NCBI GenBank assembly: GCA_964490975.1
Contig: CAZBEQ010000002.1
Location: 75,900 to 139,899 of the forward strand
DNA length: 64,000 nucleotides
Direction of reading: 5' to 3'
Source: an uncultured Oscillospiraceae bacterium
GTDB lineage: Bacteria > Bacillota > Clostridia > Acetivibrionales > DTU013
The stretch's first letter is position 1. Each line of letters begins with the position of its first letter. Under the pieces are notes generated by a model. It was given only the letters and a program-made list of their open reading frames with translations, ran no database searches and was not told the DNA's origin. Made by a program: the position numbers and the translations under genes. This document shows positions 3,441-45,691 of this stretch, piece by piece.

Positions 3441-3502
3441 TGGAAATCTTAAAATAGAAGCAATTTGCTCTGATCCTTTATGGCTGAACAAATTGCTTCT
3501 AT
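3441..3502 (-). terminator. putative rho-independent terminator after the abrB-like gene
   Basis: Perfect 14-bp inverted repeat ATAGAAGCAATTTG (3454-3467 / 3489-3502) followed on the minus strand by TTTAAGATTT. The 21-nt loop is long. Confidence 0.4.
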
Positions 3503-3534
3503 CAAGAAAATAAGATGTTTGCCACGCAAGCCTC

Positions 3535-3774
3535 TCAGCCCTTGAGCTCCTTCATACAAGCAGAGCAAATGTTCTTGCCCTTATAGTTAATGACGTCCTT
3601 GGCATCACCACAGAATATGCATGCCGGTTCATATTTCTTTAAAATAATATTAGCTCCATCAATAAAAATCTCAAGTGCATCTTTCTCAGCAATGTCCAAA
3701 GTCCTTCTCAGCTCGATTGGTAACACAACTCTCCCCAATTCGTCAACTTTTCTTACTATACCGGTGGACTTCAT
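3535..3774 (-). CDS. AbrB/SpoVT-family transition-state regulator with C-terminal CxxC...CxxC tail
   Basis: MKSTGIVRKVDELGRVVLPIELRR is the classic AbrB N-terminal swapped-hairpin motif. The RBS GGGGGTGA lies just upstream of the second ATG (3774). Confidence 0.85.
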   Translation of the reverse strand: MKSTGIVRKVDELGRVVLPIELRRTLDIAEKDALEIFIDGANIILKKYEPACIFCGDAKDVINYKGKNICSACMKELKG

Positions 3775-5444: not shown

Positions 5445-5605
5445 ACTTCCACCCCAATCACTTTGCCATTATTAGTAGCTTCACTAATATATTACCATAT
5501 TATATGACAGAATAACACAAATAACCGAAAAACCGTTTATTGATTGACATTCGAGATATTTGAGCATTTTGCAATTTTACGCATATTAATCCTTCAATTT
5601 TTTTC

Positions 5606-5635
5606 TTGACAAATCAGCATATATGAGATTATATT
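5606..5635 (+). promoter_or_regulatory. candidate sigma-A promoter for gdhA
   Basis: TTGACA (5606-5611), then an 18-nt spacer, then TATATT (5630-5635), about 200 nt upstream of the start codon. Confidence 0.4.
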
Positions 5636-15822: not shown

Positions 15823-15884
15823 AAATGGCATGAAAAAAGGGCTCCAGGTATTCCTGGAACCCTTGGCGCGCCCAGCAGAGATCG
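15823..15884 (-). repeat. direct repeat copy B (tRNA-Arg 3' end plus terminator)
   Basis: Pairs with 13343-13405. Contains the terminator hairpin GGGUUCCAGG/CCUGGAGCCC plus a U-run (minus sense). Confidence 0.9.
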
Positions 15885-15940
15885 AATCCACAACCTTCTG
15901 GTCCGTAGCCAGACGCTCTATCCAATTGAGCTATGGGCGC
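15864..15940 (-). tRNA. tRNA-Arg (anticodon ACG)
   Basis: A 77-nt cloverleaf folded by hand: acceptor GCGCCCA/TGGGCGC, D arm GCTC-AATTGGATA-GAGC, anticodon stem TCTGG/CCAGA with loop CTACGGA, T arm GTGGA-TTCGATC-TCTGC, and an encoded CCA. Confidence 0.95.
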
Positions 15941-39607: not shown

Positions 39608-43186
<3,579 letters not shown>

Positions 43187-43264
43187 TTATACATAATAGA
43201 TATTCTATAAAAAATACAGTTTAAGATAACCAGGGGGGTTTATCAATACTACTTTCAAGTTAAA

Positions 43265-43281
43265 TTGTATACTGTATACAA
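43265..43281. promoter_or_regulatory. perfect palindrome TTGTATAC-T-GTATACAA upstream of nifJ (operator candidate)
   Basis: An 8-1-8 palindrome about 135 nt upstream of the nifJ start. The outer TTGT...ACAA resembles Rex-type half-sites. Confidence 0.35.
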
Positions 43282-43544
43282 TATAACTCATAGACCTGAT
43301 ATTATTTTAACATTGTTATCTCATTTTGTGAAGTATTTCATTATATAACAGCATAAAATTAAAGGTAAATTGATAGAGTCATTGAAACCTTATAGCGAAT
43401 CATTAATTTTTAATTGCGTCAATTGGCCAAAATTTTAAGTAAAGGCCATTTTATTCATGATATTAGTGATATTTCTCCATGAAAATATTCATAATAAAGG
43501 GCATTTAATAATTATGTTTACCCTGACAGCCTTATAGTGGCCTC

Positions 43545-43900
43545 TACTCAAAATTCTGGCCATAAATCTAAGGTTGCCCTGGTACTTGTTCTAATGTTAG
43601 AAATCCAGATAACACCCCGAGATATATAACCGGAGTCCAGATGAAGATATGGGAATGACTGAATAGAACATTCATGGACTGCAAGTGCTACAGATAAGAC
43701 CAAACCACAATGCTCGAATGAGGCGTCAGGAACCACAGCCGGCAGTATGGATGCTGCCGGCACTGCGTCCAGAGCTATGGACAGCGAGTGGCCTACACCC
43801 TCATTGGAGCAAGTGTTTTGCTCCTGAACTGTTCACGAAGCAGTCCGAAGGATACTCGGCCATCCTTGTCTCCAGAGATTTTCTCATGTCTTGTTTATGT
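43545..43900. ncRNA. unclassified GC-rich region with nested helices, a candidate structured RNA
   Basis: 38/60 G+C in 43721-43780 versus 16/60 in 43381-43440. Six non-crossing helices were found by hand (see finding). Only short unconvincing ORFs occur on either strand. Confidence 0.45.
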
Positions 43901-43912
43901 TAATGAATTTAA

Positions 43913-44203
43913 CTAAGCAATTCTGAATAGCAGCTTGATAATAACAAGGAGCAGAAAACCTGGTATGCCCAGTGTCCCGACAATAAATGCTGTATATATG
44001 TTTAATGCCATATGAAAACCAATAAAGCCTCCTACCCAGTTAACAAGCAGTATGGCTACCGCCCCGAGCAATGAATTGAGCACAAGCTTCAGAACAACCT
44101 TGAGCGGAGCAAGGAGCAGCCTGCCAAAGATAATAAGCAATACTATACCTACCGCATAAGCCAGAACTACTCCTAAATCTACAGCCATAGCATCACACCA
44201 CAT
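43913..44203 (-). CDS. bofA: pro-sigma-K processing inhibitor BofA
   Basis: Small 3-TM protein with the BofA-typical LLAPLKVVLKLVLNSLLGAVAILLVNWVG block. The start codon is uncertain (44203 or 44188). Confidence 0.85.
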   Translation of the reverse strand: MWCDAMAVDLGVVLAYAVGIVLLIIFGRLLLAPLKVVLKLVLNSLLGAVAILLVNWVGGFIGFHMALNIYTAFIVGTLGIPGFLLLVIIKLLFRIA

Positions 44204-44315: not shown

Positions 44316-44621
44316 TCAAAGGTTCTGCGTAAGACCTCTTTCTTTAACAAGCTTTAAAAAGTAAGTATATCTTGATTCACAGGCCTTGAGCCTATAGATA
44401 TGATAGTCCAGGAGCAGGTCATCATCAGCGTAATTAAAATCGATACCGGCTTCCACCCACTCGTCCTTTGCTGCAAGAGCCGCCTCGATTATCTGCTGCT
44501 CTTCAGCTGTAAGTCTGTTATGTGGCTTTGCCCTGGCAATAAAAGAACTTCTTGCTTTTTTCTTTGCACTGGAGTTTATATTTGCAGGTTCATATTTCAG
44601 TTCAGTATCCATAGTTTGCAC
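44316..44621 (-). CDS. YaaL-like protein (DUF2508)
   Basis: 101 aa with a WVEAGIDFNYADDDLLLDYHIYRLKACESRY pattern, and yaaL-bofA synteny as in Bacillus. Confidence 0.7.
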   Translation of the reverse strand: MQTMDTELKYEPANINSSAKKKARSSFIARAKPHNRLTAEEQQIIEAALAAKDEWVEAGIDFNYADDDLLLDYHIYRLKACESRYTYFLKLVKERGLTQNL

Positions 44622-44865
44622 CCTCTTACAGTATATTCCTTTTATACTATAATTATAGGCACAAATGCTTGCTTCTAATACTTCGGTTCAAATAAAATTT
44701 TCGAATAGGCGATAATTTGCTTTGCAAATTACTCTAAGCAGACATTTTTTTACTTGAGCAGTTTCAACAAAAGCTGCTCGACCATACATCCGAGGCTGGT
44801 CGCAAACTTTGTTTGCTGTTGACTGCATGACTATACATCCGAGGCTGGGGACATCTGCCGCTTCG

Positions 44866-45456
44866 TTATATCCGCCCATTCTTCAAATATCTATGAACTG
44901 CGCCGGAGGTTATGTTTCTGAATTTTCCCCAATCCTGCCATTTTCCCTTGATAGAGTTCAGTGCATTTACGGTATTTTCAAGACCTCCCAGGTCAACCTC
45001 ATTAATGCCGCTGATTTCATCATCGCTTGCGTCCTCTAAAAGCCTTCCACCGATTTCATCAAGTATGAAAATATAAGAATAAAACATTACAAATTCATCA
45101 TTGCACTCAAACCTTATCCGCAATACACCTGCAAAGGATCTTATTTTCACCACCAGACCAAGCTCTTCCGCCACTTCTCTGAATACTGCATCGAGTATAT
45201 CTTCATCATGGCCGATACCGCCTGTCGGTATCCTGTAAATGTTTTCGGGGTAATCACTGCACGTAATTGTTATGATCTTACCGTCTGGCCTGATAACGCA
45301 AAAAACAACCTCTCCCCTTCTGTCTCTCTGCACCACGTTTCTGATCTTATTAAAGTAGCCTGGGGATGCATACCGCACTGTCAGATCCTTAATAACCCTG
45401 TCAGCGCCAAGGTTTTTGCATATATTATTAAACTCTGCCTCATTAAATACATTCAT
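44866..45456 (-). CDS. NUDIX hydrolase
   Basis: Nudix box GGIGHDEDILDAVFREVAEELGL. GAAAGGA lies 9 nt before the ATG at 45456; the longer 45510 start lacks an RBS. Confidence 0.75.
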   Translation of the reverse strand: MNVFNEAEFNNICKNLGADRVIKDLTVRYASPGYFNKIRNVVQRDRRGEVVFCVIRPDGKIITITCSDYPENIYRIPTGGIGHDEDILDAVFREVAEELGLVVKIRSFAGVLRIRFECNDEFVMFYSYIFILDEIGGRLLEDASDDEISGINEVDLGGLENTVNALNSIKGKWQDWGKFRNITSGAVHRYLKNGRI

Positions 45457-45691
45457 AGGATCTGATCCTTTCAAGTAGTTGAAAAACGCAGTACAAGTAT
45501 CTCTCTTCATTAATATTAATACATTTCAGACTCTATTTCTACTATTGTATTGAGAATTAGAAATGAAGTAATTAAAATTTAATATTATTTCTAGTTTTTA
45601 TATTGTCTTTTAAGAGAACAATTGCGATAATAATACAGTCTATATGCTGTATAGACGTAAGTAAAATTAATTGATACCGGGGTGTAATTCA

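Follow-up and report, generated by a model that had tools for sequence, protein, structure and literature searches.

The element described here lies in a spacer of the 64,000-nucleotide stretch of DNA that was analyzed (the window, to which all coordinates refer unless another locus is named). The sequence-only reading that preceded this work placed it between bofA and nifJ, both on the minus strand, and this was correct; the minus-strand neighbors comprise a NUDIX gene, a DUF2508/yaaL-like gene, bofA and a nifJ/PFOR-type ORF. The yaaL(DUF2508)-bofA pair (44316-45510, minus strand) has the NUDIX hydrolase gene ahead of it, an order that is kept in the close relatives L001 and L041, and we take the yaaL-bofA arrangement to be the same as that of Bacillus subtilis. 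The main features of the locus are these:

43913-44203, minus strand: the bofA gene (PF07441, E 3e-20)
39608-43132, minus strand: the nifJ/PFOR-type ORF, 1174 aa, identified by the sequence-only reading and from its own sequence, not through a family library
43225-43244 and 43264-43282: a hairpin, GATAACCAGGGGGGTTTATC, and a perfect palindrome, ATTGTATACTGTATACAAT, upstream of nifJ
43424-43448 / 43538-43562: a 25-nt hairpin motif, TGGCCA.AATTTT.AGTA.AGGCCA, in two inverted copies within the AT-rich spacer adjoining the element
43585-43889, no strand assigned: an inserted segment of 305 nt, absent from the L041 spacer (nhmmer and pairwise alignment)
43591-43636, plus strand: a 5' extension within the inserted segment, with no clear counterpart in other copies
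43637-43895, plus strand: the full element, rod and apical domain (second-iteration nhmmer profile, E 1.8e-69)
43675-43847, plus strand: the conserved core, helices P2-P6 and two apical hairpins (covariance model R1)

The element lies 23 nt past the bofA stop codon, and the nifJ start codon (43132) is about 500 nt from its other end (43637) and about 450 nt from the start of the inserted segment (43585). The hairpin and palindrome upstream of nifJ are conserved in L018 and L042/L043 and are probably a 5' UTR structure and the operator for a regulator. The two copies of the 25-nt motif are identical at 22/25 positions as reverse complements, and one of them is present also in L041.

G+C reaches 0.60 at 43700-43799 vs. 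0.22-0.30 in the flanking spacer, and the counts given earlier (38/60 at 43721-43780 and 16/60 at 43381-43440) were exact. With RNAfold, 43545-43900 yields -126.4 kcal/mol on the minus strand (z -4.72) and -123.9 kcal/mol on the plus strand (z -6.04), in both cases better than 100/100 dinucleotide shuffles. The eight helices that had been folded by hand (a, b, c, d, e with its two extensions, and f) are all fully complementary, and the general idea of a structured, non-coding, RNA-like element was borne out, both by folds that beat the shuffles and by covariation among the homologues described below. Two overlapping ORFs of 71-72 aa are indeed present over the element, as had been observed (at about 71 aa); neither has a Pfam match, and a six-frame query (every stop-free stretch, concatenated) found no homologue among 5.8 billion proteins, so the decayed protein gene that had been raised as a counter-possibility did not emerge. 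Short repeats about 300 nt apart gave rise to the idea of a degenerate tandem copy of bofA, which was dropped on a local alignment score no better than that of shuffles.

The Rfam comparison that had been proposed gave a divided result, since the window copy matched no family whereas its relatives reached one at sub-threshold scores; the description “unclassified” is thus only half right, as the homologues connect the element to RF01731 (TwoAYGGAY) at those sub-threshold scores. For the window copy, no credible match was obtained at the gathering cutoff or in three scans at E<=10, and the resemblance to RNase P that had been suggested was not upheld by any RNase P match at that permissive level. 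Matches to MIR812 and to snoRNAs in this region are chance ones, the former due to the pair of 25-nt hairpin motifs. The sole Rfam match of the whole window at curated thresholds is a tRNA (15867-15940, minus strand, 59.6 bits), and the covariance model found no second copy of the element in the 64-kb window.

Comparison with related genomes indicates how the element came to be where it is. In the closest relative, L041 (BofA 89% identical), the bofA stop codon is followed by the homologue of 43890-43912 and then directly by the homologue of 43584-43515, so that 43585-43889 is an indel; the segment is bounded by CTTGTT direct repeats (43585-43590 and 43890-43895). This 6-bp repeat, which may be a target-site duplication, is seen at the window insertion only, in the comparison with L041, no other site having a close enough empty counterpart. 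Synteny of bofA and nifJ is widespread, with a spacer of about 200-330 nt in most relatives vs. 780 nt in the window, and in relatives with 79% BofA identity bofA leads almost straight into the conserved nifJ promoter region. No homologue of the element was present at any of 39 BofA loci from GTDB genomes (0/39), nor in three metagenome contigs; the element of the L001 contig matches that of the window with the same nhmmer score, 329.9 bits. The alignment of relatives' spacers suggested earlier as a check thus finds no conservation within the bofA-nifJ spacer itself, the region being an insertion. To judge from these alignments, the ancestral spacer did not contain the element, which is of a dispersed kind and entered here as a lineage-specific insertion. 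The 5' extension (43591-43636) held no convincing promoter.

Homologous copies were found in seven other assemblies, at four unrelated intergenic loci. Exact-seed and back-translated scans of viral contigs gave nothing (six scans, five with core motifs and one with a back-translated frame, no true match), and neither did a first metagenome scan with the minus-frame translation as probe; a metagenome scan with the plus-frame translation as a degenerate probe led to L057, where a copy has a truncated murA fragment on one side and an ECF sigma gene on the other. The FtsW protein of L057 was then used to fetch the same locus from relatives. In addition, the plus-frame translation, compared with 1.8 billion representative proteins, hit spurious ORFs called over further copies, and the contigs of these ORFs gave four more loci. 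The copies are distributed as follows:

L060, L061, L064, L065: a single copy at the ftsW-murA'-sigma locus
L062: two copies at the ftsW-murA'-sigma locus
L059: three copies, the middle one partial, at the ftsW-murA'-sigma locus
L058: four copies at the ftsW-murA'-sigma locus
L068: two tandem copies, period 289
L069: a copy between rpsB and trpF
L070: one full copy and one degenerate inverted copy
L071/72: a copy adjoining gpmI

The array in L058 consists of 223 nt x 4.0 copies, 100% identical, the array copy numbers coming mostly from short-read assemblies, in which repeats may be collapsed or expanded. At the ftsW-murA'-sigma locus the core points one way in L057 and L064 and the opposite way in L058-L062; a flip between inverted arms was considered as the cause and set aside, as the flanks between the core and the fixed sequence fail to align. 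The element is absent from this locus in the more distant L073 and L074; L073 comes from the same MAG as L007, which is itself without the element at bofA-nifJ, and L074 and L001 come from the same sequencing run. No neighbor gene is shared consistently across the copies, and no transposase gene adjoins any of them; blastn found no match among the plasmids of PLSDB or the phages of INPHARED. By sequence comparison, then, a dispersed element recurs at unrelated intergenic loci of related Clostridia, in both orientations at one of them and, in some assemblies, in tandem arrays.

Several features of these other loci are recorded here for their own sake. At the ftsW locus, ftsW is followed by a conserved ORF of 119-158 aa that corresponds to the N-terminal part of murA (L057 2472-2945, and also L058-L067, L073 and L074); it covers positions 2-115 of the 417 of PF00275, the rest of the gene is missing downstream, and the truncated form persists in relatives whose FtsW is 81-100% identical. 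The murA'-sigma spacers that are free of the element carry another inverted repeat, GGTGACACTCCTC...GAGGAGTGTCAC (L073 about 5525-5605, L074 about 5530-5625), the right-hand arm of which, GAGGAATGTCACGCAA, is present twice in L074. In L070 the element copy is closely followed by a T-box leader (3496-3743, 116.8 bits, above cutoff), which in turn precedes genes for an AsnC-type regulator and an aminotransferase. Among the predicted proteins, P0189 (1094 aa) is made up of 14 identical 78-aa repeats, a 234-nt tandem array translated as though it were a gene, and shows weak similarity to the element's 3' half; P0195, a repeat ORF of the same sort, shares the motif corresponding to CCCUCAUUGGAGC, and P0192 is another repeat ORF, in which no common motif was seen. 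All three may be more distant tandem-array relatives.

The copies share a fold. From an alignment of 14 sequences (about nine of them independent), RNAalifold predicts a long rod whose 5' and 3' ends pair to close it and which bears two hairpins at its tip. With the second hairpin revised as explained below, the fold maps to the window as follows (hairpin f is listed as well):

43644-43655 / 43881-43892, plus strand: P1 of the window copy, 12 bp, two of them G-U in the plus sense, the counterpart of a far longer P1 in other copies (minimum-energy folds)
43676-43682 / 43840-43846, plus strand: P2, helix e of the sequence-only reading (column-to-coordinate mapping)
43685-43687 / 43834-43836, plus strand: P3 (column-to-coordinate mapping)
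43690-43708 / 43813-43832, plus strand: P4-P5 (column-to-coordinate mapping)
43712-43723 / 43799-43810, plus strand: P6, helix c extended, near-invariant, GCUCGAAUGAGG / CCUCAUUGGAGC
43738-43761, plus strand: apical hairpin 1 (formerly a), stem GCCGGCAG(U) / (G)CUGCCGGC
43747-43752, plus strand: loop of hairpin 1, AUGGAU, the first AYGGAY
43761-43797, plus strand: apical hairpin 2
43761-43767 / 43792-43797, plus strand: outer stem of hairpin 2, degenerate in the window copy (three mismatches)
43772-43773 / 43786-43787, plus strand: tandem G-A pairs of hairpin 2, GA facing GA, invariant in all copies
43774-43776 / 43783-43785, plus strand: inner stem of hairpin 2, GCU / AGC
43777-43782, plus strand: loop of hairpin 2, AUGGAC, the second AYGGAY
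43848-43867, plus strand: hairpin f, AAGGAU-ACUCGGCC-AUCCUU, in the window copy only (alignment)

In this alignment 94.7% of cells are paired vs. 31-47% when the partners are slid by one to three columns, and 36/70 pairs show double changes; 0/500 shuffles reached the observed measures. Covariation is strong in the rod, with double changes in 15/19 pairs of the P3-P5 run and in 14/17 pairs of P1, the sequence of which differs almost completely between copies and still pairs. P1 is also variable in length (12 bp in the window, 17-20 bp or more in relatives, with arms of up to about 68 bp in L064), and the ends are the most variable part of the element, while the apical 100 nt or so are near-invariant. 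Hairpin 1 is 100% paired in all copies, with two double changes, and the inner stem of hairpin 2 appears as GCC/GGC, GCU/AGC or GAC/GUC in different copies. RNAalifold had placed a hairpin P9 and a 2-bp P7 in the latter position; these have no compensatory changes and are broken in L071, and the TwoAYGGAY-type hairpin 2 is preferred because it alone covaries. The structure revised in this way has double changes in 25/57 pairs. On the window core, the covariance model R1 scores 173.6 bits (E 9e-42) on the plus strand vs. 34.1 bits on the minus strand; the homologous copies (L057, L058-L067, L068, L069, L070 and L071/72) score 142-198 bits. Positions 43637-43895, in the plus sense, are thus a copy of a conserved structured element with a rod (P1-P6) and a near-invariant apical domain.

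The hand-drawn helices fared unequally in this comparison. Conservation, with covariation in the homologues, was seen for a, for c and for e together with both of its extensions (P2-P4). Hairpin b does not covary and competes with the conserved hairpin that carries the AUGGAC loop, hairpin d gives way in the family to the long-range pairing of P4-P5, and hairpin f is peculiar to the window copy, other copies having the 3' arm of P1 in the same region. As a whole, the earlier observation is confirmed and its interpretation is partly supported.

The two AYGGAY loops connect the element to a known motif. TwoAYGGAY was described from Clostridia, gamma-proteobacteria and gut metagenomes as a structure with two terminal loops bearing AYGGAY and a P1 that is “often very large,” and its discoverers scored it as a probable RNA without a cis-regulatory role (Weinberg et al., 2010; PMC2864571). 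Tandem G-A pairs have since been noted in one of its stems, and sequestration of CsrA has been proposed for it without a test (PMC4333381). In an E-value Rfam scan, every copy in six relatives matched RF01731 on the same strand (27.1-38.5 bits vs. a cutoff of 43), and L057, scanned by itself, gave E 6.7e-5 and placed both hairpins on model positions 49-108. No relative reached the gathering cutoff (43 bits), and the window copy was unmatched even at E<=10, probably on account of the mismatches and the competing helix in its hairpin 2.

The likeness extends over most of the known architecture: two adjacent terminal hairpins with AYGGAY loops (both present in the window copy and covarying across copies), a second stem that contains tandem G-A pairs, a P1 that closes the structure from its 5' and 3' ends and can be very long, and occurrence in Clostridia with no conserved gene neighbor. 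The copies of the present lineage differ in falling below the curated cutoff, in having, below the hairpins, a 15-17-nt linker and one more helix that is near-invariant (P6), and in their multi-helix rod (P1-P5). Taken together, the matches and the shared architecture indicate that the element is related to the TwoAYGGAY RNA motif, RF01731, as a divergent form. Tandem arrays, presence/absence polymorphism and orientation flips were not found described for TwoAYGGAY in those parts of the literature that were available to us.

The strand on which the element functions is most likely the plus strand, antisense to bofA and nifJ, because four lines of comparison agree. The plus sense has a consensus energy of -102.3 kcal/mol vs. 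-88.2 for the minus sense, and 8/9 single copies are more stable in the plus sense; the whole rod has 39-45 G-U pairs vs. 15 A-C mismatches (in the core alone the asymmetry is modest, 16 vs. 6); and both the covariance model and the RF01731 matches are in the plus sense. The weak preference for a minus-strand transcript expressed earlier is therefore reversed. No consistent sigma-70-like promoter or intrinsic terminator was found beside the copies on either strand, and we infer from the asymmetry of the fold that the element would be transcribed from the plus strand.

The window copy itself may be weakened. In its hairpin 2, the competing GUCCA/UGGAC helix (hairpin b) is favored by about 6.6 kcal/mol and buries the second GGA, which is thus predicted to be sequestered. 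When hairpin 2 is folded alone, the second GGA is exposed in 8/8 other copies, and in folds of the whole apical domain 4/8 of these (L060, L058c, L068a and L069) adopt the competing fold. These energy models suggest that the window copy may be drifting.

Taken as a whole, the observations are best explained by a trans-acting, protein-binding small RNA that is kin to TwoAYGGAY, read from the plus strand and inserted here as a dispersed element, a reading to which we give a probability of roughly 0.6. The same distribution could have come about if the element were a non-autonomous mobile DNA (MITE-like, or a single-stranded-DNA hairpin) the fold of which serves a transposase or recombinase acting in trans, any RNA being incidental. 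Presence/absence polymorphism with a 6-bp direct repeat, copies spread over five unrelated loci of different organisms, relatives that have empty sites at both the bofA-nifJ and the murA'-sigma loci, opposite orientations at one locus and tandem amplification are all as expected of such an element, and single-stranded DNA tolerates G-T wobble just as RNA tolerates G-U. The pattern of conservation, however, is the reverse of that of terminal repeats recognized by a transposase, since the ends are the most variable and covarying part while the center is near-invariant, and the P1 arms lack the sequence-conserved terminal inverted repeats by which MITEs are recognized; no transposase gene lies beside any copy, the core was not found in the plasmid, phage or viral collections, and the direct repeat is seen at one site only, where a microhomology-mediated deletion in the relative would fit equally well. 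Structured interspersed repeats of bacteria, such as Correia elements, ERIC and the bcr1-type repeats of Bacillus cereus, resemble the present element in being small, ORF-less, hairpin-forming and intergenic, present or absent between close relatives and sometimes transcribed. They differ from it in that their terminal inverted repeats are conserved and their target duplications defined, whereas here the ends vary and the center is conserved. We consider a mobile DNA of this kind unlikely. Less probable again, in our estimate, is a quasi-palindromic DNA repeat spread by recombination, with arms kept matched by templated mutation or gene conversion and without any RNA or protein-binding function: much of the element is a long imperfect inverted repeat (with the arms of about 68 bp in L064 as the extreme), and its copy number and orientation are unstable, but it is the non-palindromic apical domain that is most conserved, across organisms of differing G+C, and neither two hairpins with a conserved loop motif and compensatory changes nor the strand asymmetry in energy and wobble pairs would be expected of such a repeat.

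A role in cis, whether for bofA (as its 3' UTR, terminator structure or antisense regulator) or for nifJ (as a distant leader), is suggested by the position of the element 23 nt after one gene and some 450-500 nt upstream of the start codon of the other, and Rfam does file RF01731 under “Cis-reg.” We nevertheless hold it to be very improbable, as the spacer is without the element in 40/40 relatives though the bofA-nifJ synteny and the nifJ promoter region are kept, the neighbors differ from locus to locus and the orientation relative to them varies, and the discoverers of TwoAYGGAY scored the motif as not cis-regulatory (PMC2864571). Least credible of all, with next to no chance of being right, is a decayed or very small protein-coding gene; two overlapping ORFs exist in the window, and gene callers annotated ORFs over other copies (P0190-P0194), but the absence of any Pfam match or six-frame homologue, the varying frame and extent of the called ORFs and a 1-nt indel that shifts the frame within the conserved core between copies all argue against it.

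Under the reading that we prefer, the trans-acting small RNA of TwoAYGGAY kin, the RNA would act by binding a protein: the rod would provide stability or a processing stalk, and the two GGA-containing loops would form a bipartite site for a dimeric RNA-binding protein, with tandem arrays multiplying such sites (each unit has two GGA loop motifs, the four-unit L058 array as many as eight). Just one candidate has been put forward, a CsrA-type regulator, and as a published hypothesis only; by term counts, a preprint that treats TwoAYGGAY at length does not mention CsrA (bioRxiv 10.64898/2026.09.22.753630). The likeness to CsrB, CsrC and RsmX/Y/Z lies in GGA motifs displayed by hairpin loops, with surroundings like those of the CsrA SELEX consensus (the hypothesis put forward for TwoAYGGAY in PMC4333381), and in the multiplication of sites by unit repetition. 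The element differs from these RNAs in having just two sites per unit and no sequence homology to them, and no csrA linkage or promoter was found; CsrA binding is hypothetical. A tblastn search with an approximate B. subtilis CsrA as query found no csrA match in the window or at 74 loci, a result that says little. Going further, the element might be a self-amplifying, horizontally mobile RNA module. In Clostridia its arrays would then soak up a global regulator that binds GGA, be it CsrA or some other dimeric protein, each array being a tunable sponge with several sites. We regard this extension as improbable.

For annotation, the consequence is that the region is neither a regulatory region of bofA or nifJ nor a pseudogene. 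TwoAYGGAY, described in 2010, is still an orphan among RNA classes, and this locus adds to it a divergent lineage that the Rfam model misses, together with a strongly covarying alignment and a refined architecture of rod, invariant helix with linker, and two GGA hairpins. Insertion or absence between close relatives, varied loci, both orientations and identical arrays of one to four units should constrain ideas about its function. If the sponge reading is true, the copy number and orientation at a locus would set the free concentration of the regulator. The known CsrA antagonist in Bacillota is a protein, FliW, and not an sRNA, and to our knowledge there is no known RNA antagonist of CsrA in Clostridia or Gram-positive anaerobes; if CsrA is indeed what is bound, these organisms would gain one, acting through multiplied sites.
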